From an uncultured virus (IMG/VR IMGVR_UViG_3300028327_000658) (taxonomy: Duplodnaviria; Heunggongvirae; Uroviricota; Caudoviricetes), in the IMG/VR virus record IMGVR_UViG_3300028327_000658: 64,000 nt of DNA; one strand, 5' to 3'. The notes beneath the pieces were generated by a model, which saw nothing but the letters and a program-made list of their open reading frames with translations, was not told where the DNA came from and did no database searches. The translations under genes were made by a program, and so were the position numbers. The stretch's first letter is position 1; the number at the start of each line of letters is the position of its first letter. This document shows, one piece after another, positions 3 through 61,997 of this stretch.

Positions 3-284
3 GACATACTTTTGTACGGCGCCGACGAGGTTATGGCGGTTGAAACCAAATCCCAATTGACGATACGTGACGTAAAAGACCACATGGAACGATTGGAAAA
101 ACTGCGCCGGCATGAAGACTTGGTCGGTGTTAAAGACAAAAAACTTGTCGGAGCGGTGGTCGGGGCGGTAGTGGACAAAGATGTAAAAAAATTCGCTTTG
201 GAGAAAGGCCTTTGCGTTGTAACGATACGTGAGGAAGAGGAGAAGTTAGACGTTGTGGAACCCGAAACGTGCCGTACCTGGTAA
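3..284 (+). CDS. 5'-truncated PD-(D/E)XK-like hypothetical protein (DUF3782-like)
   Basis: Frame is open from the window start: DILLYGADEVMAVETKS has a D..E.K pattern, followed by DVKDHMERLEKLR and KLVGAVVG. Confidence 0.5.
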   Translation, partial: DILLYGADEVMAVETKSQLTIRDVKDHMERLEKLRRHEDLVGVKDKKLVGAVVGAVVDKDVKKFALEKGLCVVTIREEEEKLDVVEPETCRTW

Positions 285-366
285 AAAACCGGCCGTACCT
301 GCGGGGCCTCCCGGCTCTGCGGGCTATGCGGCCGAACCCACATAAATCCCAAAAAAGGAACCGCAA

Positions 367-1308
367 ATGTACTCGAACGCCGCAAAACCGCTCAAAACCG
401 CCGCCGGAGCCGCTCTCTTGGCCATAACGATGATCTTAGGGCTCGGCTGCGGCGACGCTTCAAACCCCGGCTCCAAACCGGACCCCAAAAACAAAGACTG
501 GAGAGTCTCGAACTGGACAAAACCCGACACTTCAGGGTACGTCACGTTTAACAACGGCGGGATCAAAATCGAAATGGTGCTCGTTAAGGGCGGGACTTTC
601 ACTATGGGCTGCACTATGCCCGAAGAGGAACTGTGCGATTTCGACGAAGGCGGGTTCGTTACCCGGCGGCGGTGCGACGGAGGGATGCTGCAAAACCTTT
701 GCGCGGCGAACGAATATCCCGCGCATAAAGTTACCGTCAGCGATTTTTATATCGGTAAATTTGAAGTAACAAATGAATTATGGATAAAAGTGATGGATCG
801 TTATCCTGAATGGTATTATGATGATGGTTTACTTAAAAAGATTGATAATCTTATAAATCCTTTATATGCTGTACGTCATCTTGATTCGGCATCAATCCCC
901 TCTTTTTTGAACAAATTAAATAAACTGACTAATAAAAACTATCGTTTGCCCACGGAGGCCGAATGGGAGTTCGCCGCTCGCGGCGGTAATAACAGCAAAA
1001 ACCGTGCATTTGCGGGAAGCGATAACGTTGAACAAGTTAACGGGTATGGACCTATGGGAACCAGTTTACCCAATGAATTAGGAATCTACAGTATGACCGG
1101 TAATGTAGCGGAACTTGTTAGCGATTGGTATTCTCCCTACACTGCAAAATCACAAGCAAACCCGCAAGGCCCTCTTTCAGGAGAATACCGCATAACACGC
1201 GGAGGATATAGCAGCCGACAAGAAAGTTATTTGCGCGTTTCTTCGCGCGTGACTTTATTACCGAACGAAATTGATGATGGAATCAGACTTGTTTTAAATG
1301 CAAACTAA
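367..1308 (+). CDS. Formylglycine-generating enzyme (FGE-sulfatase/SUMF1) domain lipoprotein
   Basis: Lipobox LGLGC; motifs VKGGTFTMGC, IGKFEVTN, YRLPTEAEWEFAARGG, NELGIYSMTGNVAE, RITRGG. Confidence 0.9.
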   Translation: MYSNAAKPLKTAAGAALLAITMILGLGCGDASNPGSKPDPKNKDWRVSNWTKPDTSGYVTFNNGGIKIEMVLVKGGTFTMGCTMPEEELCDFDEGGFVTRRRCDGGMLQNLCAANEYPAHKVTVSDFYIGKFEVTNELWIKVMDRYPEWYYDDGLLKKIDNLINPLYAVRHLDSASIPSFLNKLNKLTNKNYRLPTEAEWEFAARGGNNSKNRAFAGSDNVEQVNGYGPMGTSLPNELGIYSMTGNVAELVSDWYSPYTAKSQANPQGPLSGEYRITRGGYSSRQESYLRVSSRVTLLPNEIDDGIRLVLNAN

Positions 1309-1987
1309 TCTATATAATGGTGGATCGGAGATAAGTAATATGGACATTAGAGAACAACTTGAAGCCGTCGGCCTCCCGACGCTGATAGGGACAGAACAAC
1401 AAGTGAAAATGGCTAACAATATCCGTAATGGATTCATCGCGGCTTTCGTGACACATAATTTAGATTGGCAAACTATCGTAGAAACAGCAAAAACCGACAA
1501 AAAAGTAAACATGGAATGTGAAAAGCTAATGAAAACCTCCGCTAAATGGTGGATTGCTTTTCGCAATGAGAAAATCTTTGGACTATGTGCTGAAAAAAAA
1601 CCGTCCAAACACAAAAATGATGAAACGGATTTGATTTGTCCCAAATGCGGCGGAACCATCGTTGTCTACAATAAAGGCTTTAGATGTACTAATGATTACA
1701 AGGTTTGCGGTTTTAAAATATGGCGTGAATCTTATGGCGTAACCATTACCCAAGATATTGCCCGCGAACTTATTACAGAACGTAAAACATCAAACCCAAT
1801 ATCTGGCGTGTTGGTGGGCGATCAACACATGTCTGCGCGATTGGAACTGACCGATGATTTCAAGGTTCGCCCGCTTCTCGTGCCTAATTGCTCCAGCACA
1901 AATTGTCCACGATGTGGCAGTAATAAAATGATGAATATGCCGTACGGCGGCCTTATTTGTACGGTATGCAGATTTCACGGGTATTGA
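1298..1987 (+). CDS. Zinc-ribbon protein with a topoisomerase C-terminal-repeat-like domain
   Basis: CPKCGG...FRC...CGFKIW...IT.DIARELIT resembles the C-terminal repeats of the TopB in this window; extra C-terminal CPRC..CTVC. The real start may be 1338. Confidence 0.6.
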   Translation: MQTNLYNGGSEISNMDIREQLEAVGLPTLIGTEQQVKMANNIRNGFIAAFVTHNLDWQTIVETAKTDKKVNMECEKLMKTSAKWWIAFRNEKIFGLCAEKKPSKHKNDETDLICPKCGGTIVVYNKGFRCTNDYKVCGFKIWRESYGVTITQDIARELITERKTSNPISGVLVGDQHMSARLELTDDFKVRPLLVPNCSSTNCPRCGSNKMMNMPYGGLICTVCRFHGY

Positions 1988-2011
1988 GGACTTCACTTGC
2001 TCTAAGCGCAA

Positions 2012-2035
2012 ACTGAGGGGCACTAACCCCTCAGT
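2012..2035. terminator. Hairpin between convergent genes
   Basis: ACTGAGGGG-CACTAA-CCCCTCAGT, a perfect 9-bp stem. Confidence 0.6.
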
Positions 2036-2052
2036 CCTATACGCCCAAAATT

Positions 2053-2292
2053 TCACCACGATGTGTCTAAAAGGTTTTTAATGTCTTTTTCTGAAAAGCC
2101 TAATGCTTTAGCAATAGCCTCAACACTGAAGTCTTCTTTGGACATATGCCTAACGATTTCTCGCCGTTCCTCTAACTTTGCATTGGCCAGCGCAGACGCT
2201 TCGTTGTGCTTCGCACGTTCTCTTTGGCGCACCATCTCCCGAAATTCGGGCGACGCAGCCACATTGTGATACGCTTCTACTAACTGTTCCAT
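2053..2292 (-). CDS. Stand-alone RpnS-like small protein (second copy of the Rpn C-terminal module)
   Basis: The first 38 aa are identical to the Rpn internal segment starting MEQLVEAY, with 9 nucleotide differences, all synonymous. The C-terminal HTH-like half differs. Confidence 0.8.
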   Translation of the reverse strand: MEQLVEAYHNVAASPEFREMVRQRERAKHNEASALANAKLEERREIVRHMSKEDFSVEAIAKALGFSEKDIKNLLDTSW

Positions 2293-2295
2293 AGC

Positions 2296-2532
2296 TCACG
2301 CCTTTAAGACTTCATCTACTGAAAGATCGGTTAGTTCGATGATCTCGTCCACACTCATGCCTTTGGCTTTAAGGCGACGCGCAAGCTTTATACGCTCCTC
2401 TAACTTTGCTTCTTGCGCCGCATTAGCGAGTGCCGACGCTTCGTTGTGCTTCGCACGTTCTCTTTGACGTACCATCTCCCTGAATTCGGGCGACGCAGCC
2501 ACATTGTGATATGCTTCTACTAACTGTTCCAT
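2296..2532 (-). CDS. Putative internally initiated RpnS antitoxin (78 aa, in frame with rpn)
   Basis: AGGAGG (2540-2545) lies 7 nt upstream of in-frame ATG 2532, the same Met that starts the downstream stand-alone copy. Confidence 0.65.
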   Translation of the reverse strand: MEQLVEAYHNVAASPEFREMVRQRERAKHNEASALANAAQEAKLEERIKLARRLKAKGMSVDEIIELTDLSVDEVLKA

Positions 2533-3123
2533 AGGCTCTCCTCCTATAGTTTTGATTTTTGACAGCTGTTCTTCGGTTTTCGCGTTAATCGCGGCAAGCC
2601 ACAATTCTACTTCGTCGTTTACGTCAAGATTCTCGATTTTCGGCAGTTTAGGCAACTCGAAGTAGTGCAGCGACATCTTATCCGTAAGCAAAGTATGGCG
2701 ATTGACTTCCATCGGTCGAAATTCTGAGTGTAAGTCATTGACATCCTTGAAGAGTTTGAACCCTATAATGTTTATAAGAATCGTACGCGGCAAAGCGGCG
2801 TATTCTTGAGCGACGTGTAGCGCGTTCGAGTATGCACGTGCCCAATAGTAAAGCGACCGTTCCGGGTAATCATGCTCATCCTTGACCTGCACCTCCAAAT
2901 TGACCCGTTCGCCGTTCACCTCCATGTTAATGTCGAGGCGGCAGAACTTGTCATCCACGTCATCGCACGGAGGCATCTCCGGATTGGTTATCTTAAATTC
3001 GGCTATTCCGTCGATTGGGATACCCAGTATCTTCGCGACTAACCTCTTCAATAACTCCGGGTACTTCACGAACAGCATCTTGAACAAGGTGTCATTTGTG
3101 AGGTTGTATAGTAATTCGGCCAT
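2296..3123 (-). CDS. rpn: Rpn family PD-(D/E)XK nuclease (recombination-promoting nuclease/putative transposase)
   Basis: NDTLFKMLF, RLDI..VNGERVNLEVQ, ERSLYYWARAY, HYFELPK and the typical tail AKGMSVDEIIELTDLS. ATG 3123 has SD AAGGAG. Confidence 0.9.
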   Translation of the reverse strand: MAELLYNLTNDTLFKMLFVKYPELLKRLVAKILGIPIDGIAEFKITNPEMPPCDDVDDKFCRLDINMEVNGERVNLEVQVKDEHDYPERSLYYWARAYSNALHVAQEYAALPRTILINIIGFKLFKDVNDLHSEFRPMEVNRHTLLTDKMSLHYFELPKLPKIENLDVNDEVELWLAAINAKTEEQLSKIKTIGGEPMEQLVEAYHNVAASPEFREMVRQRERAKHNEASALANAAQEAKLEERIKLARRLKAKGMSVDEIIELTDLSVDEVLKA

Positions 3124-3146
3124 AAAAGTCTCCTTTATATGCTTAT

Positions 3147-3176
3147 AATATACATTACGGCACGTTCCCCGGTCAA
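3147..3176 (-). promoter_or_regulatory. Sigma70-like promoter of rpn
   Basis: TTGACC-18-TATATT. Confidence 0.55.
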
Positions 3177-3185
3177 CTTTTATTT

Positions 3186-3434
3186 TCACCTATTGTTCAC
3201 TGATTCCATAGGCACGTCGTACCCCGATAACCACGCGGGGCTTACACGCAGCGCAACGGCCATAACGTAAACGGCGGAATGCCCGACCTCATAACCCCTG
3301 CCGGCATACTGCTCGATACGATGCTCGCCTATCCCCGTTTGACGCGACAGCTCCGCCTTTCCGACCCCTCTTATATCCATAGCCCGGCGAAGCCGCTCGT
3401 CAAACGCCTCGATTCTACCCTTAAATTCACTCAC
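3186..3434 (-). CDS. XRE-family helix-turn-helix regulator
   Basis: ERLRRAMDIRGVGKAELSRQTGI...IEQY...MAVALRVSPAWLSGYDVPME; GTG start with SD AGGAG. Confidence 0.85.
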   Translation of the reverse strand: MSEFKGRIEAFDERLRRAMDIRGVGKAELSRQTGIGEHRIEQYAGRGYEVGHSAVYVMAVALRVSPAWLSGYDVPMESVNNR

Positions 3435-3519
3435 GTTTCAATCTCCTCTCCGTTAAAACGCTCAAAAACGCTCATTACAGCACGTTCGGCCTCAAGGTGG
3501 AGGGGGAAGTCGGGCAAGG

Positions 3520-3665
3520 CCGCCAAAACGTCACAGCGGCCACGCCAGCCCGCAAATTTCAGTCCACGCGCCCGCGAAGGGCACGACCTAAACCGCCAAA
3601 ACGTCACAGCGGCCCCGCCAGCCCGCAAGTTTCAATCCACGCGCCCATGAAGGGCACGACCTAAA
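3520..3665 (-). CRISPR. Orphan type I-C CRISPR-repeat-like tandem (2 repeats: 3629-3660 and 3556-3587); no cas genes in the window
   Basis: Minus strand GTCGTGCCCTTCATGGGCGCGTGGATTGAAAC and GTCGTGCCCTTCGCGGGCGCGTGGACTGAAAT: 32 nt, 7-bp hairpin, GGAYTGAAAY end. They are separated by 41 nt and form a 73-bp unit duplicated with 5 differences. Confidence 0.8.
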
Positions 3666-3679
3666 TGGGCAAAATCGCC

Positions 3680-4120
3680 CTAAAACGGCATCTCCTCCCC
3701 CCCAGAAGTATCCACCGGCAAAGCCGCCAAATCCTCGTCCGACAGCCCGGCGACATTTGGATCAGCCGGCGCGGTCCCCGCAACGTTCTTACCCGGCAGT
3801 ATCTGGAACCGGTCTACTTCGATGTCCGTCCGGTAATGCCGCTTTCCTCCCTCATCATCCCAAAAATGATACCGAATCTTGCCTTCCACCAAACAGCAAT
3901 CCCCTTTGTGTAAATATTCGTTGGCGATCTCTGCCGGTTTCCCCCATGCCACAATATGGTGCCAATCCGTCCTGCTGCCGTCTTGTTTGCCGTTCTTACC
4001 CTTCCACCGCTCCGTAGTAGCCAGCGAAAACTTCGTTACCATCCGGCCCTGCGGCGTAGTCCGGCTTTCAGGGTTTTCGCCTAAGTACCCGACAAGCGTA
4101 ACCCGATTCATGCAAGCCAT
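3680..4120 (-). CDS. ssb: Single-stranded DNA-binding protein
   Basis: MNRVTLVGYLG..PE.R, FSLATTERW, TDWHHIVAWGK.AE..YLHKG..VEGKIR and acidic tail EEMPF. Confidence 0.97.
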   Translation of the reverse strand: MACMNRVTLVGYLGENPESRTTPQGRMVTKFSLATTERWKGKNGKQDGSRTDWHHIVAWGKPAEIANEYLHKGDCCLVEGKIRYHFWDDEGGKRHYRTDIEVDRFQILPGKNVAGTAPADPNVAGLSDEDLAALPVDTSGGEEMPF

Positions 4121-4176
4121 ACAACGACCTCCTTTTCAAAGAATGTGTTTCCTCGCCGTGTTTAGGGCGAGCGAAT

Positions 4177-5346
4177 TTATAATGGATCCAACTTAATCCC
4201 GCCTTTCAACACCTCAAATTGAGCCGCCCTCACATTTGTAATCTTATGCGCTTCCGTGCCCAGCATCGCGCTCAACAGTTTCGCTTCCAGTATGGCGTGG
4301 AGCATCTTCTTGTTGTTCGCGTTCACATTCATAATCGAATACCACGCCGCCGCAAGCTCAACGCCGTTGATGCCGCCGTCCTCGATAAACTCCATTATCT
4401 TTTCATCGACATCGCCGAGACGCTCCAATTCGGCTTGCGCCCACTGCCTATACGCGAGACTGCCGGCCATCGCCTGGCTTATAACTATTTTATTCGACTC
4501 AACCGGCAGCGCATACTTCCGAAACCGGTCTTGCGGCAGCTTAATCTCTTGGCTTGTATCCGCAATGCCTAACGTCGGCTTTCTATCCTTTACATTGACA
4601 TATCCGCTGGAAAATTTAACGCCCTTGGATAACCATTTAATCCCGTTAGAATCAGAAATCAAATTATCGACATACTTCAAGACATTCCCCGAACTTATAT
4701 CTATGCCGCCGTCAGGAACTTTGACTGTCGATGACAACATCCCCCCGCCGATTGTATATGTATAGGTTTTATTTACCGTCGTCATCGTATCCCAAGTCTT
4801 TTCTAACCGCGCAATCTTACTGTCTAACGTTTTCGGCATCCGCTTTGCAGCTTCGATTTCTTCGTTGAAATCAACTATTTTTTGCAGTTGCGGCAGCAAA
4901 CCGTGATTCTCTGTAAACAACGACCCCGCATGATCAAACAACTGCGCATACGCTTTACCCATCTTTTCTATATAATCTTTAACATCGTTATATTTTTTGA
5001 CAAGGCTGCCCCACAGCTTTATTTCATCATAAACCAGGCGAACATACGTCCGCACCTTAAAGTAATCCGATACGATCCCCGCCGCGATACCCCAAGCGCG
5101 GCTGTCTTTTACCGGGTCGAATATCTTGTTGCTCATACTGAACCGCTTTCCGGTTGCTTGAATATTCGTGATAGCGTCCACGCATCCGGCGGCATCCCCC
5201 TGGAAAAGCAGTTCCGAGGCCGCCATGTATTCTCTCACTGTCTTCATAGTGGTCATGGCCTCATGGGTCTGTCCCGCAACTGCGGTAACCCCGCCGATTA
5301 CACATAAACAAATAATCGTGCTTATAATCCGCGTTTTCTTTTTCAT
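4177..5346 (-). CDS. Secreted helical protein, possible VirB5/TrbJ-like T4SS component
   Basis: Signal peptide, long amphipathic helices, located in the transfer gene run. Confidence 0.4.
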   Translation of the reverse strand: MKKKTRIISTIICLCVIGGVTAVAGQTHEAMTTMKTVREYMAASELLFQGDAAGCVDAITNIQATGKRFSMSNKIFDPVKDSRAWGIAAGIVSDYFKVRTYVRLVYDEIKLWGSLVKKYNDVKDYIEKMGKAYAQLFDHAGSLFTENHGLLPQLQKIVDFNEEIEAAKRMPKTLDSKIARLEKTWDTMTTVNKTYTYTIGGGMLSSTVKVPDGGIDISSGNVLKYVDNLISDSNGIKWLSKGVKFSSGYVNVKDRKPTLGIADTSQEIKLPQDRFRKYALPVESNKIVISQAMAGSLAYRQWAQAELERLGDVDEKIMEFIEDGGINGVELAAAWYSIMNVNANNKKMLHAILEAKLLSAMLGTEAHKITNVRAAQFEVLKGGIKLDPL

Positions 5347-5351
5347 GGCTC

Positions 5352-7298
5352 TTACCTCATTTTCTTTCTTGCTTCTGTTCTTAATTTTCTACGAGCGTCT
5401 TCGATTGCGACAGAATCTTTTACTTCGTTAAAAACGCTCCGAACGAAATTACGCAGATCTAAGTCATAAGAACACGTATACAAAAAATTATTGCACCCTT
5501 TTTGGGCATTCCGGGCTGTATCTCGAAAATTCACCTCCCACGTCTGCGGACAAAACGAAACCGCGTCGTTGATTTTCTGTGTCCATGTTTGCGGGAACTC
5601 CTTTCTGATTCTTGCGTTAAATTTAGCCTTATCCAAAAGCGCCGTACCTATCTGCACCGCCCTGCGCTTTAACAAAAAAACATCGCTCTTATCCGTGATA
5701 TGCTTATCTTTCCACGCCGCCCACAAAACATATAACGCATTGGACATGCTCATTTCATCGCAAAGCGGCGGTGTCCGATACAAAAACGACCGCAAATCGC
5801 TTGCCGTATACCCGTTCAGACTGTCTATCTGCAAACAAGGGCACCCATTGTAAACGTAACGGTTTTCGACATAGTTAGAATCAACGTCCGTTAAATCCAC
5901 AAGCGTCCCGCCGTTTATGTGGTCTGTCGGTTCATAGTAGTTTCCATCCCCCTTTTTTACTTTCCAATATTCATCCCTCACTTCCGGGAAGCGATACTTA
6001 TTCCCGATAGTTATATCCTTTGACTTCCAATCGGGGCATTCGCTGTACATTCTAACGATCTTGGCATCATCATCGTCAGATTCGGCGTACAACCGCAAAA
6101 CCCCTAAACCAACCTCATAGGACGATGTATTATTAAGCTTTACTATCCTGTCAGGCAACCGGTTAATGTAAAACCCCTCAAAACCCTTGTCCCTATACGA
6201 CGGGTCATCCTTAACCATACTCGTTTTAAGATGCTTTGAAGATACCGGCGATATCCCGTCCCAGAAAAACTGTGCTGAAACAACCGTTGACGCGCTGTCC
6301 GAGTAATACGGGCTGCGATACCAAATCCACTGCGCCATATAAGACGTATCCGGGTAGTACGGGTAAAAAATAGCCCCCGTATCACCGATATTGTTTATGC
6401 GCCTGATAGATTCAATACGGCGATCTCTCGCCACGAACATATTCATTACTAATGAATCGTTAAGCATCGGCTGACCGGACCGAGGCTGTTGTCTCGGATA
6501 CCATTTGGTGAGTGGGAACAGATGTATTTGATAAAATTTAAAGTCCGGGACAGCTGGTTTTGGTGCCTTTGACTGATATTCGTAACACCTCTCTTTATCA
6601 CAATAATCAATAAACTCTTTTTCTGCTTCATTTACATTCATTGAATTATAATAACGAACGCGCCTGTACTTAGCTGATATAGTTGTATCATTTAACTTTC
6701 CTGTATAAATATATTCGGCAGCTTTCTTATCTAACGGATTATCTCTTTCATAGTTAATAATCTCGACACAAATAGGTTTACTTTTATAATACGTCCCTTT
6801 ATACGATGGTGTCCATCTAACAAATTTCCCCGAAGTATCCGCCACGTCACGAACTCCCCAATACCCCGACGAGGCTGAATTTTTATTAAAATATTCATCG
6901 CACGACCACACCGTATCAGGAACGTTACGCCGCGATATAGACAAAACCGAATCTTTCGCTTCCCTATACGGTTTTTTCAAGTTATTTTCCATCCGTGAAA
7001 ACTGGTAATTAACTTCATTCAATAAATGCGCCGTGCTCTTAAAATTCAATCCCGTCAAATTCGCCCACTTCATGCTTATATCACCGTTATCATCATTCGG
7101 GAACGTAACCATAACCACGTGCGTAGGGACAGCCCCCGTAAACGACGGATAGACCCGATGATTATACCCTTTGCCGATAAGCCACGTTTGATTCCTCAAC
7201 GGAAATTTGCTCATTGATAATGTATCGCGGTCTTCCGACATTGCACTATTCGACAACGCAACGAGCAATATCATTATTTTTATAGCTGTTTTCATCAA
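5352..7298 (-). CDS. Secreted hypothetical protein (648 aa, Tyr/Cys-rich)
   Basis: Long ORF with signal peptide in the transfer gene run; no recognisable family. Confidence 0.6.
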   Translation of the reverse strand: MMKTAIKIMILLVALSNSAMSEDRDTLSMSKFPLRNQTWLIGKGYNHRVYPSFTGAVPTHVVMVTFPNDDNGDISMKWANLTGLNFKSTAHLLNEVNYQFSRMENNLKKPYREAKDSVLSISRRNVPDTVWSCDEYFNKNSASSGYWGVRDVADTSGKFVRWTPSYKGTYYKSKPICVEIINYERDNPLDKKAAEYIYTGKLNDTTISAKYRRVRYYNSMNVNEAEKEFIDYCDKERCYEYQSKAPKPAVPDFKFYQIHLFPLTKWYPRQQPRSGQPMLNDSLVMNMFVARDRRIESIRRINNIGDTGAIFYPYYPDTSYMAQWIWYRSPYYSDSASTVVSAQFFWDGISPVSSKHLKTSMVKDDPSYRDKGFEGFYINRLPDRIVKLNNTSSYEVGLGVLRLYAESDDDDAKIVRMYSECPDWKSKDITIGNKYRFPEVRDEYWKVKKGDGNYYEPTDHINGGTLVDLTDVDSNYVENRYVYNGCPCLQIDSLNGYTASDLRSFLYRTPPLCDEMSMSNALYVLWAAWKDKHITDKSDVFLLKRRAVQIGTALLDKAKFNARIRKEFPQTWTQKINDAVSFCPQTWEVNFRDTARNAQKGCNNFLYTCSYDLDLRNFVRSVFNEVKDSVAIEDARRKLRTEARKKMR

Positions 7299-7306
7299 CC
7301 GGCCCC

Positions 7307-7729
7307 TTAAAACATGTAATTTAGACCGCCGCCAATACCGTAATTGCTTACAGTGAAAGAAAACGCGCCGGCTTGTATTGATAACGCAATGTAATAATCT
7401 ACCCTGAAATCGCCATACGAATGCAAATAATACAGCGTCCCGGCTGAAACACCGGGACGCAAAATCGGCATAAGATAGTAAAAATAGCCGCCATAAAATC
7501 CGTACGCGGTTTCAATCCCCGCACCCGCATGGGGCGCGACAAACACAAGAACCCCGCTCTCATAATACTCAAATTTACGCTTATCGGGTCGCAACATATA
7601 CCCGGCAGTCGCAAGATAGGCATCCTCCTCCGTACTCCACGCTTTTTGGCCTCCCACCGCGATTCCGGCTGCACAAGCAACCCCGTGTAAACAAATAACA
7701 AAAAACACAAAAACAAGATATTTTCGCAT
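7307..7729 (-). CDS. Small outer-membrane beta-barrel-like protein (TraO-like position)
   Basis: Start MRKYLVFVFFVICLHGVACA is a signal peptide; alternating aromatic/Gly strands; C-terminal GGGLNYMF beta-signal. Confidence 0.55.
   Translation of the reverse strand: MRKYLVFVFFVICLHGVACAAGIAVGGQKAWSTEEDAYLATAGYMLRPDKRKFEYYESGVLVFVAPHAGAGIETAYGFYGGYFYYLMPILRPGVSAGTLYYLHSYGDFRVDYYIALSIQAGAFSFTVSNYGIGGGLNYMF
7509..7540 (-). repeat. Solitary type I-C CRISPR-repeat-like element inside a CDS
   Basis: GTCGCGCCCCATGCGGGTGCGGGGATTGAAAC (32 nt, stem CGCGCCC/GGGTGCG), translated in frame as VAPHAGAGIET. Confidence 0.8.
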
Positions 7730-7731
7730 AT

Positions 7732-8706
7732 TTACTGCTCTCCGTCCGTCATTTGGCGGCTCAACCGCTGTAAATCCTTCAGGGTCTGCATTTGCACGAT
7801 CCGCTGCTGTTCCTGCTGCACATCTACAAACGTCAGCAATTCCCGCGAATATAGCCCGTTCGGAAAACATGACAGATACTTCGACGCGGACGTTAAATCT
7901 TGATTCTTGCGGAAATCCGCATAGAGCAACTTCTGGTAAACCGAATCCACCATTTTATCCTTTTCAGGGTACACGACATAATATTGCTCTATTTTGTCGA
8001 TACTCGGCCAACGTTTCAGCGAGGAACGCCACTTGGCCTTGTGATTCGCTATCAAATCCCCGATTTCCTGAGTATATAACCCGGGATAATCTACCTTGAA
8101 CTGAAATAAATCCCCGATATTGCTCGAAGCCATTACGCCGACAAAAACATCACGGAAAGAAACTTCTACGATGTGCCGCAAAGAATCCAATACCGCGACA
8201 GACACATAGCGTAAGCCGGTCAAATCCTTTAATTTATCGAAACTGCCGTCAAAATATCTTAATACGCTTTGTTGATACAGTGTTTTATGCTTCCCTATTC
8301 CGGCCGTATCGCTCCCCCGCCCCGCTAAATAATCAAAATATTCGTCATACCTTTGAAGCAACTGATAATAATCGCCGCTTTTTAACACTTTTTCTAAATT
8401 TAATTCAAAACTGTCCGCAACTACCCGTAACGCGACATCATCGACAATATCTTTGATGCTGTCGTATAACGGACGCAATCCGCGACTTGACGGATCAAGC
8501 AAAATACTCTCATATTTCTCCACAATCCCCCGCCCGAAACGGATAACCCCGGCATAATTGCCGTCATTGTTCGCGATTTTTACGGCTTCGGCATCGCGAA
8601 CGAACTCTCGCCGCTCGGCCTTAGTCAGCGGTTTATAGTAGTTTTGCGCAAAACAAAACGCCGCAAATAACGTCAACGCAAAGCAACCATTAATCAAAAT
8701 CTTCAT
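7732..8706 (-). CDS. Secreted alpha-helical hypothetical protein
   Basis: Signal peptide; repeated Y...YP/FP motifs reminiscent of helical-repeat periplasmic proteins. Confidence 0.6.
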   Translation of the reverse strand: MKILINGCFALTLFAAFCFAQNYYKPLTKAERREFVRDAEAVKIANNDGNYAGVIRFGRGIVEKYESILLDPSSRGLRPLYDSIKDIVDDVALRVVADSFELNLEKVLKSGDYYQLLQRYDEYFDYLAGRGSDTAGIGKHKTLYQQSVLRYFDGSFDKLKDLTGLRYVSVAVLDSLRHIVEVSFRDVFVGVMASSNIGDLFQFKVDYPGLYTQEIGDLIANHKAKWRSSLKRWPSIDKIEQYYVVYPEKDKMVDSVYQKLLYADFRKNQDLTSASKYLSCFPNGLYSRELLTFVDVQQEQQRIVQMQTLKDLQRLSRQMTDGEQ

Positions 8707-9164
8707 TTTTTACCGTCCTTGCCTGAAAAAATACTGTCCGGCGATCGCGACGCGATCTTTCTGGCTTCTTCGAGGCTCTCAAACCCGAACAAACGCGCTT
8801 GCGCATCCGCAACTCGGGTACTGTCGCCCACAAGATCTTTATCCATCATCGACAGCTTATAGCTCGGATAAATGTTGAAAACGCCCAAAGACACCGCAAA
8901 TATTGCAAACATTACAATCAGCCACCGCTTTCTAATCTCGATTTTCCAAAACTTCTTCTCTTGCTCCTCTGCGTGTGTCTTCACCAAAACAAACAGAATC
9001 GTCAAAAAGCACACGAACAGCAAAATATTGCCTAACTTCCGCAAATTAGATATAAGCGCTAACTGTTGCGTTATTATAGGCTCCGTATTAAGCAACGCCT
9101 GATACATCAGCGCGACCATATAGCGAAACTGCCCCATAATGTACGATAGCGTATCGGAGGACAT
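8703..9164 (-). CDS. Membrane protein (2 TM)
   Basis: Two hydrophobic stretches; stop overlaps the start of the next gene. Confidence 0.6.
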   Translation of the reverse strand: MSSDTLSYIMGQFRYMVALMYQALLNTEPIITQQLALISNLRKLGNILLFVCFLTILFVLVKTHAEEQEKKFWKIEIRKRWLIVMFAIFAVSLGVFNIYPSYKLSMMDKDLVGDSTRVADAQARLFGFESLEEARKIASRSPDSIFSGKDGKK

Positions 9165-9166
9165 AT

Positions 9167-10342
9167 TTAGTACCTCACCGTTAATCTGCTCGTCAATAAA
9201 ATGCTGAACTGCGTCCCGACCGGCACCGTAACCGTATGAGGCCTTTCCACGCCGAATTTAGCGATCTCGTTCTGTATCTGCGGAAGCGTTTGGCCGACAA
9301 CCTCAGCCGTAATCGCGTCCCGCGTATCTATCCGGTCTCCCCCGCGATTGTTTGCGTTCCACGCGATAAACCCTCCGGTTATCGCCGCATTCGCGACTAT
9401 AGGGACCGCGCGGCTGCCGTAATGACGGTTTACTTTGCCGGTTACTCCCGGGAAACCCATCTCTATCTGACCCGACAAGGTATATTCCTCGCCCTTAAAC
9501 ACGATTTTCGCCACCTCTACAGGGATTCGGTCGTTTATTTGCCCGGATTGCTGACATATCAGCTGCGCCCCGCGCAGGACGTCAGGCCGGACGATCTTAG
9601 AGGTAAAAAAGCCGGGATGGTCACTGCTTACAAGTTGCTCGGTTATCGCGATTATACGGCTTCCTGACGGCAAAAAATACTCATACGGAGTCACCATGAG
9701 CGGCACGTCCGTCCGACCCTGCTGGCCATCGACGGCGTTGATGGCGATCTGCCTCGCTTCCGCCGCCGTTTTCAGCTTGCTTACCTCCGCATCCGGCAAC
9801 ATCCAAACATTGCCTTGATTCGCCTTGAAATGGCTCACTTTTGTTTGATAATCCGGCGAATACCGCTCCCAAGAACGCGATGAACGCATAAGCGGCGGCA
9901 AATCGACCTTTGGAATAGCCGGATGTTTTTGCTGAGCCTCCTGTAATTCGTTAATTTTACGTACAAGCTCTTCAAAACCCCGCGTTTGCACCGCCTGTAA
10001 CGCCCTGACATCCTGCCCCAAATTAACAATATTGGATTCTTGCACGTCTAACCGTTCATCGACGCTGCTCCCGGCTCCCGGCGTGGCGAGCGAGCTCAGC
10101 GAGGCCGACTTGCCGACCGCACCGCCGGCAGACGACGTTCCGCTTCCAGACCCGACACCGCCAGCTCCGCCACCGGAACCAACGCCGGGGGCTTGCGCCA
10201 CCACCGCCGGCACTTTAGCCTCTTTCGAGGGCGACGATGCAACAATGGCCGTCCCAAACCCTAACGTAGCGACGGAAGTTAACCCGAATAGGCACTTAGC
10301 CCCCGTACTAAGCCCCTTCCACGCATCTAAAATCTTTCCCAT
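9167..10342 (-). CDS. virB10: VirB10/TrbI-like T4SS core protein
   Basis: N-terminal TM, Gly-rich linker, coiled coil, then LPSGSRIIAITEQLVSSDHPG, GVTGKVNRHYG, HTVTVPVGTQFSILL. Confidence 0.8.
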   Translation of the reverse strand: MGKILDAWKGLSTGAKCLFGLTSVATLGFGTAIVASSPSKEAKVPAVVAQAPGVGSGGGAGGVGSGSGTSSAGGAVGKSASLSSLATPGAGSSVDERLDVQESNIVNLGQDVRALQAVQTRGFEELVRKINELQEAQQKHPAIPKVDLPPLMRSSRSWERYSPDYQTKVSHFKANQGNVWMLPDAEVSKLKTAAEARQIAINAVDGQQGRTDVPLMVTPYEYFLPSGSRIIAITEQLVSSDHPGFFTSKIVRPDVLRGAQLICQQSGQINDRIPVEVAKIVFKGEEYTLSGQIEMGFPGVTGKVNRHYGSRAVPIVANAAITGGFIAWNANNRGGDRIDTRDAITAEVVGQTLPQIQNEIAKFGVERPHTVTVPVGTQFSILLTSRLTVRY

Positions 10343-10366
10343 TTTTTTGCGCTCCTTTAACTGAAT

Positions 10367-11281
10367 TTATGATATATAGGCCGTGTAAGACAAGACCTTT
10401 GACCAAATCTCAAAAACAAACTGGATCCGCGAACGCTTGTTCCTTTCGGGCATTTGAAGCGGCACTTTATAAACGTAGGCCCACGTACCGTCCATGTTCT
10501 CCGTCGTGGACACATGATCTGCCGGCAAATCCGCCTGACCCTGCGTAATTTTCAACAGTTTCACTATGTCGCACATATCTTTCTTAACGTTTGCGTACAA
10601 ATATACGTATGCTTCGCCCCGAGTAAAGATAACCCCGTTGATAAACACCGTCGCTCCTTTATATTCAATCCTCATACTCCCCCGGCGATGGTTGAAAAAC
10701 GCCGGCAACGCCTCTACCATCGTGTTTTCGTACACGCTTTTGTTCAGCTCCTTCGTATTCGCCGCCACAGCCGCTTCAACTTCTGCGTCGCATGATTTTT
10801 CTTCAACGGCAACAGCTTCTTGCTTCTTCTCTAAAACAGTGAAATGGATCGCATAAACAACAGGATCGCCTTTAACGCCTCCGCGAATCTTAAATATCAG
10901 GTTCTTCGTCTCCCCTTCAGGCGTTATAACGTTGCAAACTATGCTTGTAGCTATAGCATGATCAATCGTCCGCGTAAAAAACAACGTATTCTGCATAACA
11001 AACGCGTTGATGAAATCAATCGAACCCGGCCGATTCAACGAAAAAGTATACCCTTTCGGCAGCGACACCATCGTTTCCACGTCCAAACTCGCTACAGTCT
11101 CGTATGTCTTGTCAAAATCCAAAACATACGTACCGCGCGGCTCAATCAGATAATACACCTGATGATTCGGCCAATCCGCGTCAACAGCACCCTGCGGCCC
11201 CGGCCCCTGCTGCGCTAACAACGGCATAGCGGCAATAACGCACAGCAACACAATCCTATTTAACGCTGTTAATCTGTTCAT
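10367..11281 (-). CDS. VirB9/TraN-like T4SS core protein
   Basis: Signal peptide, two beta-rich domains joined by a helical linker; lies between the VirB8-like and VirB10-like genes. Confidence 0.5.
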   Translation of the reverse strand: MNRLTALNRIVLLCVIAAMPLLAQQGPGPQGAVDADWPNHQVYYLIEPRGTYVLDFDKTYETVASLDVETMVSLPKGYTFSLNRPGSIDFINAFVMQNTLFFTRTIDHAIATSIVCNVITPEGETKNLIFKIRGGVKGDPVVYAIHFTVLEKKQEAVAVEEKSCDAEVEAAVAANTKELNKSVYENTMVEALPAFFNHRRGSMRIEYKGATVFINGVIFTRGEAYVYLYANVKKDMCDIVKLLKITQGQADLPADHVSTTENMDGTWAYVYKVPLQMPERNKRSRIQFVFEIWSKVLSYTAYIS

Positions 11282-11942
11282 TTAATTCTACGCTCCCTTC
11301 GTTTAAAATTTTTATATCCAATAAAACCAGTGAATGCGGTCTTTTCGTGTAATCAACATTGTTATTCAGCCGTCCCCATTCAACCCGTACATTGAATGTC
11401 TTTGTTTCTTTCGTCAAACCCCCTGCTTTTACTACGCGATGAATTGTTGCAAAAACAGTATAAAATGGATCATTGCGCTTTGTTATCTTCGGGTACATCT
11501 CCCACTTAATAAACGACTCTAACTGGTCCGTTATGCACTTTTTAACCTCTGCCCCATCCAAAAAATCACCCCCCAAACTATTCCGAAACGTCGCGTTCCC
11601 CAGCTCGTATACGCTCTTACGCGCGATTTCTATGTATTGATAGTCAAAATTGAAAAAATTCTCGCAAACTTGCGTGGTATAATAGATTAATTGCCTATCT
11701 ATCAAAACCTGCGCAACATTCGTACCCTGCGCTATCGGCGCGTAAGTCCGGCCGGTCGTCCCGTCAATCACCACTATCTGCGGCGGCCGCGACAGCGAAT
11801 TGAACAACATGAATATCAAAACCAACACAAATCCGGCCATCACAATAATGCCGATACGGGCATTAAAAGCCATCTGCAAGATTTGCTTCATGTAGAAGCG
11901 GTCTGTCCGCTCCGGCATATTCTTCTTTATTTCGTTTGCCAT
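11256..11942 (-). CDS. VirB8/TrbF/TraK-like inner-membrane protein
   Basis: Single TM then PQIVVIDGTTG, an NTF2-like region ending RPHSLVLLDI; synteny. Confidence 0.65.
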   Translation of the reverse strand: MANEIKKNMPERTDRFYMKQILQMAFNARIGIIVMAGFVLVLIFMLFNSLSRPPQIVVIDGTTGRTYAPIAQGTNVAQVLIDRQLIYYTTQVCENFFNFDYQYIEIARKSVYELGNATFRNSLGGDFLDGAEVKKCITDQLESFIKWEMYPKITKRNDPFYTVFATIHRVVKAGGLTKETKTFNVRVEWGRLNNNVDYTKRPHSLVLLDIKILNEGSVELNEQINSVK

Positions 11943-11955
11943 GTTTCACCGTTCC

Positions 11956-13503
11956 TTATTTATCCGAACTTTTGTCCGAACCGCTCGAACCGCTGGGTGT
12001 AGTGCCGCCGTTCCCAGAGCCTCCCGAACTGTTATTTGGGGCCGCAGAACCGCCTCCCTGTGCGCTGCTATTACCGCCGCCACCGCCGCCGCCTGAATTT
12101 GAAGCGTTATTCGTGCTATTCGAACCGCCGCCGGGCGTAGACGACCCTTTGTTGCTATTCGAACCGCCCCCAGACCCGGAAGCCGCAGTCGTTGCCGTAC
12201 CGCCCCCGCCACCGGGCGTATTACCGCCGCCGCCGGGCGTGCTGCCGCCGCCCCGACCCATCATCCTAGACGCTTCGCTTTTGGCCAGTTTGAACGCCGA
12301 ATCCCCAAAACTGGATAACTTCCCCCCTAATTCGGTATGTCCCCCCGCAACCTTACTGGCAACTTTCGCCCCCGCTCCGGCAATAACAGCCCCTCCGGCA
12401 ACAACCCCGCCAGATACAGCCCCAAAAGCAAACATCGACCCTACGCCGCCCGCGTTGCCGAAAATCGCCGCTGAAATCGGATACGACAGACATATCAAAA
12501 CCAAAGACAGTATGCCGTATATCATCGACAGCACTATATTTATAGCACCTTGAACTGCTGCCCCGAAATTATTGATTTCGCCATATACGTTCGCGCACCC
12601 TCCGGTTAAAACCGCCAAACTCGCGATTACACTCATGAAAGATATTGTCAGCAAAAACGAAAACCAATTCGTCGCGACATTCTTTGTTGCATCAAACAAC
12701 ATAAAAGGAATGCACAACGGCCCGATATACATCGCCAACATAAATATCAACGACTGCAAAAGCGGAAAAATCATATTCAAAATTATTGCAAAAATATAGA
12801 TTATACCTGATAATAGCGTACCGACAGTTGCCGAAGTCATAGCAACCGCGCCCCAAACTGTCGTCACACCACCCCATCCGGTAACTATATGATCTTTGAA
12901 TCCAATCAAAACATTCTTCATTATTGATCCTGCAATAGCATCCGTTATCCCCCCTACACAATCCACCACCAAATACAAATATATCGACGGTGTCAGCAAA
13001 ATAGCGACTAACAACACCCGCGCGATATTTTTCTGTAAAACACGCATTGGATGAACACCCTGGCCAAGCACATTATTGACATAATCTAAAAGCAACTGCA
13101 CCAAAAACAACGCAAACCCAAGAAGCAATCCGATTCGACACAAACCGCCGATATTTTGCTCTACTGTCGCTCTGTTCTTATCAACATATCTCCCTGCGTA
13201 CCAAAGTTTTGCAAACAATTCATTTAAAAACTTATTAAGTTTCTTTTGCTCTTTATCTTTCACAGTAAGGTTTACTAAAGAATCATATTCATCGTTAATC
13301 CGATCCATATCCATACCGGGATATGCAGACACTTCAATCACAAGTTCTAAATTATTATTAACTGTTTTAGCATCCAAACACTTCCCTTCACTCTCCACAT
13401 AGTAATGACCTGGAGGACATGACTTTACATCCTCTCCCTCGGCAAACGCAGATATAACACACATAAAAAACACTAAAACAGCAAAATTCAATGTCTTTTT
13501 CAC
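11956..13503 (-). CDS. VirB6/TrbL-like polytopic membrane protein with Gly/Ser-rich tail
   Basis: Multiple TMs, IGPLCIPFMLFDATKNVATNWF motif, long G/S/N tail. Confidence 0.75.
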   Translation of the reverse strand: MKKTLNFAVLVFFMCVISAFAEGEDVKSCPPGHYYVESEGKCLDAKTVNNNLELVIEVSAYPGMDMDRINDEYDSLVNLTVKDKEQKKLNKFLNELFAKLWYAGRYVDKNRATVEQNIGGLCRIGLLLGFALFLVQLLLDYVNNVLGQGVHPMRVLQKNIARVLLVAILLTPSIYLYLVVDCVGGITDAIAGSIMKNVLIGFKDHIVTGWGGVTTVWGAVAMTSATVGTLLSGIIYIFAIILNMIFPLLQSLIFMLAMYIGPLCIPFMLFDATKNVATNWFSFLLTISFMSVIASLAVLTGGCANVYGEINNFGAAVQGAINIVLSMIYGILSLVLICLSYPISAAIFGNAGGVGSMFAFGAVSGGVVAGGAVIAGAGAKVASKVAGGHTELGGKLSSFGDSAFKLAKSEASRMMGRGGGSTPGGGGNTPGGGGGTATTAASGSGGGSNSNKGSSTPGGGSNSTNNASNSGGGGGGGNSSAQGGGSAAPNNSSGGSGNGGTTPSGSSGSDKSSDK

Positions 13504-13591
13504 GTTTAGCTCCTTATTTTATTGTAGATAAAAACGACCCCAAAAGATAAACCGACCCGCCAAATCCTCTGGGATCGCCACTTCCATATCG

Positions 13592-14737
13592 TTACTTTCC
13601 GCTTCCGCCTCCACCTCCGCTTCCACCCCCGCCTCCGCCTCCATCCCCGCTTCCACCTTGACCGCCCCCGCTCTGGTTACCCTGACCGCCCCCCCTTGCT
13701 CCGCCTGTCCCGGCAATGTTTTTTAACCTTGCAAGGTAATTTTTGGCCTTATATGTCTCACCGACAACAGAATTTATTATCGTCCCGGCCACCGCCACCG
13801 GCATCAAATACACCGTCAAACCACAAATAAAACTCAAAATCAGCCCCACCGCGCCGAACGCTCCGCTTCGAAAAATTTGCGCAATCACAAAAGTCACCAG
13901 CGTCAGATACGCCAAAACTAGTATCCCATAAAGCAACGCTTGTAAATATTGTAAAAGCAACATCCCTTCTGCTATCAACTCCAATAATCCTGTCGCACCA
14001 AGAGTTACTAAACCAATTATCGTAATAAACGCAAAAAAGACGCTTCCCAATAAAAAATTTATCCACGCTTTTACTATCCCTCCCCAAAGCGGGGAAAATG
14101 CCATACATATCGGTCCCATTAACAACGCAATAAACATAAAAAAAGGTCCTAACGACATAAATAATACCAAAAATATCAATATCAGCTGTACCACTATTAT
14201 CAATGTCGTCAAAAGTTGCGGAAACACAAAAAATACCGCAGCCGAAAGTATGTTGCCGACCGTTCTCCCTATGGCTTGAAAAAAACTCAACGCCTCTGAT
14301 CCATCCGGTGCTTGTAACGTAATTAAAAAATAACGAATTTGCACTCGAAACTGCTGCATACCCTTTTGCGCCACACCGCCGTTAAACGCTTGTACCACAC
14401 CGACTATCCAATCACATATAACACCATAAAACACCCCAAAAAATATCACCACTAACAATGATTTTGCAAATATAGCGATATAATCTCTTATGTTAAATTC
14501 AAACCCTTTTTCAACAAACTTGTGAACTATCGCTATCAACGTAATTCCAAACAACAACAACATTCCAATCCTGCTCATCCCGCCGACCACGCCCGAATCC
14601 GTCAATGTCGTCCAAAAAGATGACGTATTAAACACTCCTTCGTACGCCGACAATTTATCTAACGCATCCAACGCATCCCCTGCCAGCTTTTGAACACCTT
14701 TAATTCCAGAGAGCGTTTTGGTAGTATCAACCGCCAT
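13592..14737 (-). CDS. Second VirB6/TrbL-like protein
   Basis: Multiple TMs, MGPICMAFSPLWGGIVKAWINF motif, Gly-rich tail. Confidence 0.75.
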   Translation of the reverse strand: MAVDTTKTLSGIKGVQKLAGDALDALDKLSAYEGVFNTSSFWTTLTDSGVVGGMSRIGMLLLFGITLIAIVHKFVEKGFEFNIRDYIAIFAKSLLVVIFFGVFYGVICDWIVGVVQAFNGGVAQKGMQQFRVQIRYFLITLQAPDGSEALSFFQAIGRTVGNILSAAVFFVFPQLLTTLIIVVQLILIFLVLFMSLGPFFMFIALLMGPICMAFSPLWGGIVKAWINFLLGSVFFAFITIIGLVTLGATGLLELIAEGMLLLQYLQALLYGILVLAYLTLVTFVIAQIFRSGAFGAVGLILSFICGLTVYLMPVAVAGTIINSVVGETYKAKNYLARLKNIAGTGGARGGGQGNQSGGGQGGSGDGGGGGGGSGGGGGSGK

Positions 14738-24658: not shown

Positions 24659-25701
24659 AATTGCAAAAACCTTTCCGAATTAACAATAACATCGTCCAAG
24701 CTATCCATTTGATAAAACATACTACGCTCAGCTTGCCCCGGAAAACTGGATATATATTGCTCAGTCATAACGTTCGTATGTACATAAACCGATAACTCGT
24801 TCGCCAACAGAACATTCTTCATATCTTCTAATATCTTTGCAAAATTTTTATCGTCGCTGCCAAACATCAGAACATTATTATAAAAACACAATCGCATTGA
24901 ATCTATCTTTCTTAGTCTAAATTCGTCATCAACATCAACCTCTCTATTCAAGCCGTCTACTAAGTGAAACACTCTCTCAAAGCTCTCTCGACAAACTTCC
25001 GCATACTGATCTGATGGAACACACACTGAAAACACCTGCAAATAATCGAACTTATTCAATATGCCGCTACACTCAATATCGCTTAAATCGTTCAAAGAAG
25101 ACATCCCCAATACTCTGTTCTCGCCCAGCCGAAGCACCTTTTTTTCATCCACACACGGAACGCTTTTTAAGACAATTTCATCATTTTCTACGCCGCAATT
25201 CAACAAAAAATCATGTACTTTACTGACAAAACGCATCGGCGACAACATTTGAACACCGTCGTCTGAACACAGCAACTTTTCAACCCCGGCGACAACCGTG
25301 CTTGTCGCGTCATCAATTTTTTTTAAACTATCCTCGCTCCCGCGCAAAAACCACTTAGAAACCTCAAAAAAAGCACTTTTTAACACAGAATAATCCATAT
25401 ACGCCTTTATACAGCCCCAATACTGCGTAATTCCAGATAACCGCAATTTATAAACTTGCAATGTTGATCGAAACGTCAAAAACTCAGTTACTTTCCTCAC
25501 AAAACCCTCAAAAACCTTGATCTGAAAATAAAAAACAACCGCCCCGTCATTCGATATACAGTAACTATTCCCGTTTCTATCCACGCCGTTAGACGACACC
25601 TCACAGAAAAAAGGAAATAGGTCGGAATGTGTTATATTGATAACACCGTGCCCGTCATTCTCTTGGAATAAGTCAATCCTTTCCTTCAGAGCCGTTTTCA
25701 C
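24655..25701 (-). CDS. Hypothetical protein resembling the VirB4 N-terminal domain without the ATPase domain
   Basis: C-terminal QYISSFPGQ parallels VirB4 AYFSLLPGN at a comparable position; no Walker A. Confidence 0.4.
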   Translation of the reverse strand: MKTALKERIDLFQENDGHGVINITHSDLFPFFCEVSSNGVDRNGNSYCISNDGAVVFYFQIKVFEGFVRKVTEFLTFRSTLQVYKLRLSGITQYWGCIKAYMDYSVLKSAFFEVSKWFLRGSEDSLKKIDDATSTVVAGVEKLLCSDDGVQMLSPMRFVSKVHDFLLNCGVENDEIVLKSVPCVDEKKVLRLGENRVLGMSSLNDLSDIECSGILNKFDYLQVFSVCVPSDQYAEVCRESFERVFHLVDGLNREVDVDDEFRLRKIDSMRLCFYNNVLMFGSDDKNFAKILEDMKNVLLANELSVYVHTNVMTEQYISSFPGQAERSMFYQMDSLDDVIVNSERFLQL

Positions 25702-38553: not shown

Positions 38554-38832
38554 ATGAAAAGTATTGAAACGATCAAGAAGTTGGCCGACACCGATGCGGT
38601 GTTTGTCGCACTGGTAACGGCGCGTTATAACGCGGTGATGGAGGGACGGGATTTGAGAGAGGCCGCCAGATTGATTAAGGATGTATTGCATATGGATTTG
38701 GGGGCGGAATTAGAAGAAAAGTTCAATCTTAATCATAAGAAAAACGTTTCGACAGAGCGCGCGCTCGACGAAATTTACGGATATGTTTGGCAGGATGACG
38801 ATAAAGCGTTTCTTGTTTGCGGGCTGGGATGA
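38554..38832 (+). CDS. Small hypothetical protein
   Basis: 92 aa, SD GAGG, operon context. Confidence 0.55.
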   Translation: MKSIETIKKLADTDAVFVALVTARYNAVMEGRDLREAARLIKDVLHMDLGAELEEKFNLNHKKNVSTERALDEIYGYVWQDDDKAFLVCGLG

Positions 38833-38871
38833 TAAACCAACCGGGGCCGCTGCCCCAAAAGGACTAAAGCA

Positions 38872-61984: not shown

Positions 61985-61997
61985 TCCATATCTCCTA

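Follow-up and report, generated by a model that had tools for sequence, protein, structure and literature searches.

The stretch of DNA studied here, 64,000 nucleotides (nt) of the uncultured virus record IMGVR_UViG_3300028327_000658 (IMG/VR) and called the window below, holds a tandem pair of type I-C CRISPR repeat copies between an ssb gene and a gene for a helix-turn-helix (HTH) regulator. Our analysis showed that at least five I-C repeat mimics, this pair among them, are present on an element without cas genes, all of them on the sense strand of one minus-strand gene block, and that three of them lie in frame inside genes. An earlier note, made from the letters of the sequence, had pointed out the pair and interpreted it as Racr-like, in analogy to RNA anti-CRISPRs (Racrs), or as a regulatory mini-guide. 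We tentatively favor the former, that is, RNA mimicry by which the repeats would engage the Cas5c and Cascade of the host as decoys, and consider it to come close to, but fall short of, an even chance. Repeat mimicry on mobile elements is already known, and the present finding adds a variant to it. This variant is unusual in being a tandem in which the pseudo-spacer is duplicated, in its host phylum and type of element, and most of all in its intragenic copies, which lie in frame at lineage-specific sites.

Two type I-C repeat copies in tandem

A repeat search of the window returned direct copies of 73 nt at 3520-3592 and 3593-3665, which together form a tandem duplication (2 x 73 bp, 3520-3665) with 93% identity (68/73). 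On the minus strand, each unit opens with a type I-C CRISPR repeat of 32 nt and continues with a pseudo-spacer of 41 nt, the order being R1 (3660-3629), S1 (3628-3588), R2 (3587-3556), and S2 from 3555. S2 (3515-3555, minus strand) is a copy of S1 that runs into unique sequence; the duplicated part stops at 3520, and over this part 35 of 36 positions are identical between S2 and S1. The pair is thus a 73-bp duplication and does not contain acquired spacers, as the earlier note had maintained. Each repeat has a predicted 7-bp hairpin and an 11-nt tail with GAAAC or GAAAT at its end. In R1, the hairpin contains one G-U pair, is present in the local minimum free energy (MFE) fold, and is followed by the canonical 11-nt 3' handle. 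R2 shares the stem of R1; its loop is the one found in the commonest Fibrobacterota variant, and its handle is changed at two positions. Four of the five differences between the units fall in the repeat (two in the loop and two in the 3' handle) and one in the pseudo-spacer, and the T-to-C change in the R2 handle hits a column that is invariant among 15 natural variants.

Natural I-C repeats from genome contigs, scanned with a degenerate repeat pattern, served as the reference for repeat identity. The pattern was broad and matched at least 120 loci, mostly ordinary arrays across many phyla. Among these array loci, R1 is 2 mismatches (30/32) away from a variant present in at least 22 loci, and R2 is 3 mismatches away from a variant in at least 28 loci and 2 mismatches (30/32) away from a rarer one. 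A covariance model (CM) built on the 15 natural I-C repeat variants gave 55.8 bits (E 3.5e-12) for R1 and 49.3 bits (E 1.7e-10) for R2 in the window, both within the 34.8 to 59 bits that genuine Fibrobacterota array repeats reach with the identical CM. When up to 3 mismatches are allowed, the exact R1 string has a single occurrence in the window, and none of 100 shuffles contained it. Hence, what the earlier note had described as two 32-nt repeats are bona fide type I-C copies on a cas-less mobile element. Rfam returned no family at gathering score over the whole window; at an E-value threshold, the sole CRISPR matches in 3100-4200 were sub-threshold, CRISPR-DR9 with 14.8 bits on R1 and CRISPR-DR2 with 18.2 bits on the plus strand at 3435-3459.

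The duplication is real and not an assembly artifact, because it is unchanged in independent contigs: a 13.6-kb metagenome contig (L121) matches positions 138-13752 of the window with 100% identity, and a 196-nt contig from a run of another study spans 3513-3699 with no difference or gap.

Three minor features adjoin the pair. The handle-like 9-mer GATTGAAAC (3435-3443, minus strand) does abut the HTH gene, which has its GTG start at 3434, as the earlier note had remarked, and lies between this start and the Shine-Dalgarno-like GGAGAGGAG. As a third repeat (3443-3435) it was rejected, since its CM score (11.1 bits, E 2) is at chance level, and it is probably a chance occurrence or a decayed remnant. 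A 65-amino acid (aa) open reading frame (ORF) on the minus strand (3431-3628) starts at the first base of S1 and continues across both R2 and S2 to a TGA stop, which shares bases with the GTG that opens the HTH gene (GTGA); this ORF is probably an artifact of the GC-rich repeats. The flank of S2 shows a 15-nt likeness to the 3' end of ssb, the score of which was reached or beaten in 5/2000 shuffles, and which we regard as uninformative.

Repeat-like units inside genes

The repeats fetched from many arrays also match the window at 7506-7542, 27180-27197, and 32808-32825. The CM, run on the window with filters off, returned three intragenic repeat-like units (solitary repeat units, SRUs) on the minus strand. 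SRU3 (7509-7540; 32 nt; 31.4 bits, E 9e-6) lies in frame in a gene for a 140-aa secreted, outer membrane protein (OMP)-like product (7307-7729) and encodes VAPHAGAGIET. SRU4 (32811-32841; 31 nt; 24.2 bits, E 7e-4) is in frame in a topoisomerase gene (31687-34209), where it encodes VALLQTRGLK, and SRU5 (27183-27213; 31 nt; 26.8 bits, E 1.4e-4) is in frame in a gene for a 337-aa protein (26875-27888). A possible sixth unit, truncated to 25 nt and weak (25573-25597; 18 bits, E 0.031), sits inside the gene at 24655-25701. All six units, and 11 of the 12 CM matches with an E-value below 10, are on the minus strand.

An anchor test that required GTCG, a total length of 31 to 33 nt, and a 10-nt handle mismatched at no more than 2 positions recovered exactly the five strong units, all of which have stems of 6 to 7 bp. 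The same test on 200 dinucleotide shuffles gave a mean of 0.83 anchors and, with a stem of at least 5 bp, a mean of 0.01 (maximum 1). On syntenic Fibrobacterota contigs encoding a type IV secretion system (T4SS), the best CM match was 13.4 bits (E 1.3) in 167,365 nt with default filters and 11.4 bits (E 2.3) in 87,129 nt with filters off.

For all five units, the local MFE fold contains the hairpin, and every departure of a stem from the canonical one keeps the pairing, either by a G-U wobble or by a C-G to U-A double change. R1 and R2 have a G-U pair in the stem, SRU3 has one on the other arm, and SRU4 and SRU5 carry the double change together with a 6-bp stem and a 6-nt loop as in a natural 31-nt Fibrobacterota repeat. 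The natural form nearest to the geometry of SRU4 and SRU5 comes from a Fibrobacterota I-C array (L194, G159:C237) with a 31-nt repeat, a 6-bp stem, and a TTTACA loop; the stem type of SRU4 and SRU5 itself was found in 0 of 296 Fibrobacterota genomes.

Comparison with homologues places all three units at lineage-specific sites. The window has 12 aa at the SRU3 site where four homologues (48 to 57% identity) have a different 22-aa segment between conserved flanks, and SRU3 is unchanged in a contig of another run. At the SRU4 site, a 69%-identical homologue (P0008) has two 3-aa gaps, and 9 aa are absent from a 33%-identical homologue. SRU5 lies at the end of a linker of about 50 aa composed of Ala, Pro, Val, and Ser, and both linker and segment are absent from homologues (37 to 55% identity). 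Because the nearest homologues lack the segments or carry other forms, the units are not conserved peptide motifs with an accidental likeness to a repeat but recent in-frame gains at the nucleotide level. Direct repeats of GATTAT (27219-27214 and 27168-27163) flank SRU5 plus 14 nt, a candidate for a 51-nt in-frame insertion, and GATTAT is also found directly upstream of SRU4 (32842-32847). These flanks could be a target-site duplication or the outcome of microhomology-mediated copying, and their presence at two copies may hint at a dedicated spreading route.

With at most 1 mismatch, GGATTGAAAC occurs 13 times in the whole window versus 5.8 times expected, 11 times on the minus strand. R1 and the three intragenic units account for four of these occurrences, and the other nine represent no clear excess.

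A candidate RNA decoy and its alternatives

The host of the element probably belongs to the Fibrobacterota. VirB4 found matches in 11 of 251 genomes of this phylum, the best of them (E 2.5e-202) extending almost from end to end at 42% identity and accompanied by syntenic neighboring T4SS genes; the best matches in Spirochaetota (9/251 genomes) and Bacteroidota (42/301 genomes) had E-values of 5.6e-10 and 7.7e-14, respectively. Type I-C systems are present in this candidate phylum: Cas8c (PF09709) was detected in 40 of 296 Fibrobacterota genomes, in 39 above the cut-off, and these genomes have arrays with 31- to 33-nt repeats of the R1/R2 family. The habitat is the termite gut, from which six metagenome DNA runs of five studies contain the stretch or part of it (three may be the window's own source). 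One of these runs, which may itself be the source of the window, has contigs with a repeat, 27 to 36 other letters, and a repeat on R1/R2 and SRU3; we read them as genuine arrays with similar repeats from the same community.

The pseudo-spacer is atypical. With 41 nt, S1 exceeds the length of every one of 182 natural Fibrobacterota I-C spacers (29 to 39 nt). Its 22-nt core had no match in viral contigs, which also yielded 0 matches to the strict repeat pattern; its first 24 nt were found with at most 3 mismatches in 0 of 296 Fibrobacterota genomes; and 419,071 nt from 50 Fibrobacterota I-C cas loci contained 0 TTC-flanked sites that fit its first 12 nt with no more than 2 mismatches. Apart from the repeat units, the window had no match beyond 14 to 18 nt in the at least 120 array loci or the 182 Fibrobacterota spacers. 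The earlier note had named host cas promoters and mobile elements as places to look for a match to the inter-repeat sequence and had considered a regulatory mini-guide; we found no target for S1 in the viral contigs searched, and none for such a guide in the 50 cas loci or the 296 genomes. Within the window, two colinear exact 11-mers of S1 lie 14 nt apart at 38817-38852 (plus strand), with TGT and not TTC at the position of the protospacer-adjacent motif (PAM). This 11-mer pair scores 33.5 versus 32 for the next-best window tile and is statistically marginal; it extends across the stop codon that ends a 92-aa ORF and across a small GC hairpin ahead of the next gene.

We favor a decoy because no target was found, the length of the spacer is unnatural, the duplication adds a hairpin and not a guide, and the element has three further hairpin copies on the sense strand. 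The steps from transcription through Cas binding and cleavage to an effect on immunity we infer as follows. The pair would be transcribed by read-through from ssb or from a promoter yet to be found, and the Cas5c (Cas5d) of the host would recognize both hairpins, probably cutting 11 nt before the end of the repeat. The product would be a CRISPR RNA (crRNA)-like RNA composed of the R1 handle, S1, and the R2 hairpin, with a target-less 41-nt pseudo-spacer. Together with the hairpins embedded in mRNAs, this RNA could tie up Cas5c, Cas7, and Cas8c, and the presumed shortage of working Cascade complexes would result in less attack on the incoming element and less priming of new spacers.

Known Racrs are solitary repeat units of phages and plasmids that Cas proteins bind and process and that prevent Cascade from forming (Camara-Wilpert et al. 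2023, PMC10651486; statements on this work refer to the passages and supplements drawn on here). RacrIC1, which inhibits type I-C, is located 11 nt downstream of acrIC5 and forms one bicistronic RNA with it (PMC10651486). Like these, the pair is a cas-less repeat copy that is carried by a mobile element and has preserved its hairpin, and the candidate host group has the cognate subtype. It also immediately follows a protein gene of its own strand, at a distance of 19 nt from ssb as compared with 11 nt from acrIC5. In contrast to Racrs, it is a tandem with a duplicated 41-nt pseudo-spacer, the element is conjugative, and three extra copies lie in frame inside genes. The SRUFinder search of the same work masks ORFs and takes intragenic matches as probable false positives; where two full repeats occur within 100 bp, it drops them as an array (PMC10651486). 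Under these rules the R1/R2 pair, with repeat starts 73 nt apart, is formally a mini-array, whereas SRU3 to SRU5 are solitary; the pair is intergenic, in a 245-nt gap, and SRU3 to SRU5 are in frame inside genes. The repeat sequence and predicted structure are those of a known subtype, and the mobile element has no cas genes in the 47 ORFs scanned of the 64-kb window. The Racr-like interpretation of the earlier note is plausible and has been strengthened by the three further mimics in the element, even though the pair is not a solitary unit in the formal sense. The intragenic copies fall outside published searches because ORFs were masked by design.

According to the same passages, one viral contig with two identical SRUs appears in a supplementary table, only 90 plasmid SRUs are listed, and acr genes are enriched near racr candidates in viruses but show no association with them in plasmids (PMC10651486). 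The latter is not the link between Racrs and Aca-type regulators on which the earlier note had drawn. The supplements searched, one file excepted, contain no Fibrobacter or termite entries. RNA anti-CRISPRs have so far come mainly from phages and only as solitary intergenic repeats, as far as the passages drawn on go; here, a conjugative element of a poorly studied phylum has a two-repeat tandem, and mimics in coding sequences where the nearest homologues have none.

Several points weigh against a Racr-like decoy. There is no RNA run among those listed as containing the stretch, and we infer its transcription and processing. I-C systems are evidenced for the candidate phylum and the habitat only, and the pair was compared with identical copies only. 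The SRU5 handle pairs with upstream sequence in the local fold. When the window units were aligned with natural repeats, 97.7% of 129 cells paired and 4 of the 7 pairs were changed on both sides, but this alignment was fitted to the CM and is therefore biased to the structure of the model. Cuts by Cas5c within the element's own mRNAs would reduce the expression of three genes. By the SRUFinder rules cited above, the pair counts as an array and the intragenic matches as probable false positives. Finally, the inhibitory part of RacrIF1 lies upstream of the processing site, and the passages used give no description of the detailed working of a I-C mimic (PMC10651486).

A different role, which we consider unlikely, is that of a guide: R1, S1, and R2 could give rise to a functional crRNA-like RNA that reprograms the I-C Cascade of the host, either to silence a host gene (a CRISPR-guarding toxin or a cas promoter, for instance, after the manner of the Cracr or crlRNA type) or to attack a competing mobile element. 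The geometry is exactly that of handle, spacer, and hairpin, and R2 has kept its hairpin while its handle is weakened, as expected if S1 alone were used. The copies differ at one position in the pseudo-spacer and at four in the repeat, a split that is statistically non-significant by hand calculation. The length of S1 could also be accommodated, as 41 nt equal a typical 35-nt spacer plus 6 nt, which is one extra Cas7 step of a type I Cascade. Yet 41 nt is beyond the natural 29 to 39 nt, S1 had no target in the I-C cas loci, Fibrobacterota genomes, or viral contigs searched, its sole self-similarity (38817-38852) is marginal and has TGT where the PAM should be, and a guide role would leave the three intragenic units unexplained. 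Viral and plasmid crlRNA arrays are known and include nine two-spacer I-C arrays, the spacers of which are always different in the part of the Cracr preprint drawn on here (10.1101/2024.10.29.618823). The pair resembles them as a repeat-spacer-repeat mini-array on a mobile element outside a CRISPR-Cas locus, but its spacers are near-identical, longer than natural ones, and without a seed match in the cas loci searched (0 sites in 50 I-C loci and 0/296 genomes, all of the candidate phylum and not of the element's true host). It is similarly short, devoid of cas genes, and presumably dependent on host Cas proteins like the cas-less mini-CRISPR arrays of viruses and plasmids that act in conflicts between elements (cited in PMC10651486), but has no protospacer in the data searched and a spacer that is atypical in length and duplicated. 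With canonical Fibrobacterota I-C arrays it shares the repeat sequence, hairpin, and handle; here, however, there are only two repeats, no leader (ssb ends 19 nt upstream) and no adjacent cas genes, and the 41-nt spacer is duplicated in place of unique spacers of 29 to 39 nt. The pair combines Cracr-like geometry, without a detectable target, with a Racr-like context and, likely, a Racr-like logic.

We assign an equally low probability to the view that the units are non-functional relics, scars of encounters with host arrays by gene conversion or by illegitimate recombination after targeting, in which case the pair would be a decayed array fragment duplicated by slippage. Recombination between spacer and protospacer occurs in staphylococcal phages. 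The scores of SRU3 to SRU5 resemble those of degenerate terminal repeats of genuine arrays (24 to 31.6 bits), the intragenic units replace or interrupt native sequence, and the weak handle-like 9-mer ahead of the HTH gene would suit decay. Against this view, all five units are sense-oriented and keep 6- to 7-bp hairpins through wobble or compensatory changes, and they are identical in contigs of runs from several studies. Neither cas genes nor a leader or ordinary spacers were found nearby, no units were found in 87 to 167 kb of relatives, and SRU4 and SRU5 share 7 nt upstream but have unrelated downstream sequences, which does not fit copying from one array position. Far less probable still is a DNA-level element unrelated to CRISPR, with the palindromic 73-bp units as operators or iterons for an HTH, replication, or partition protein. 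Tandem direct repeats directly upstream of an HTH gene, with an inverted repeat in each unit, would be in place for such a role, but the 30/32 identity covers the non-palindromic 11-nt I-C handle, and the repeat unit recurs in three distant genes.

An extension of Racr-like mimicry to coding sequences is possible but rather doubtful. The in-frame mimics may have been written into tolerant loops or linkers of OMP-like, adhesin-like, and topoisomerase proteins, so that the mRNAs would double as sponges for Cas5c and Cascade; such 'coding' RNA anti-CRISPRs would be discarded by SRU searches. The mRNAs might be cut to guide-like RNAs with the downstream sequence of the gene as 'spacer', and these might be harmless to the element because the end of the repeat sits at the PAM position. 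Synonymous recoding of the intragenic copies would remove the hairpin and leave the protein unchanged, which offers a clean test. Should the units prove active, elements of this kind are undercounted wherever a catalogue masks ORFs, and mRNA-borne decoys could shape plasmid transfer in gut communities.

Gene context and the conjugative element

The pair occupies most of the 245-nt intergenic gap between ssb (3680-4120, minus strand; Pfam SSB, E 9.3e-32), the stop codon of which is 19 nt upstream of R1, and the HTH gene (3186-3434, minus strand) directly downstream. The product of the latter is an 82-aa Cro/C1-like regulator that matches PHROG 2967 ('transcriptional regulator', E 7.5e-9). An XRE-type regulator had been predicted at this place in the earlier note; an HTH gene indeed follows the pair, but the Pfam families HTH_26, HTH_19, and HTH_31 reach E-values of only about 0.02, under their cut-offs.

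Both genes form the end of a minus-strand block that extends from about 37.5 kb to 3.2 kb (~34 kb) and encodes TrbI-, TrbL-, VirB4-, and TrbC-like T4SS proteins and a topoisomerase. Elsewhere, the window encodes ParA, a coupling protein (T4CP), a TrwC-type relaxase, and a polyvalent protein, and no Cas family passed the threshold in the 47 ORFs scanned (64-kb window of a contig of roughly 77 kb). Because genes for a T4SS, a coupling protein, and a relaxase are present and no Cas family passed the threshold, the window is, on its gene content, part of a cas-less conjugative plasmid or integrative and conjugative element. We do not claim that ssb and the pair lie in the leading region because the origin of transfer (oriT) was not located.

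Window positions 2000-6000 had no megablast match in plasmids or phages, positions 3186-4120 had no blastn match in plasmids, and the relaxase had only matches of about 25% identity in PLSDB. Viral contigs contained 0 relatives of the 648-aa protein of the element and 0 of its SSB, and a metagenome scan with the 648-aa protein returned solely L121, the identical copy of the window.

The 2039-aa polyvalent protein (55937-62056, minus strand) has RadC-like JAB, PBECR3 nuclease, ART-PolyVal, and Toprim domains, a set that is typical of the anti-defense cargo of conjugative elements. A duplication of ~119 bp with 91.6% identity is found at 2180-2297 and 2420-2538, and a 79-aa ORF (2053-2292) repeats the C-terminal part of a PD-(D/E)XK (Rpn-like) gene (2296-3189). 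At 3000-3160, several contigs of one run diverge around 3034-3127 and break off at 3059-3176, which suggests variant junctions downstream of the HTH gene.

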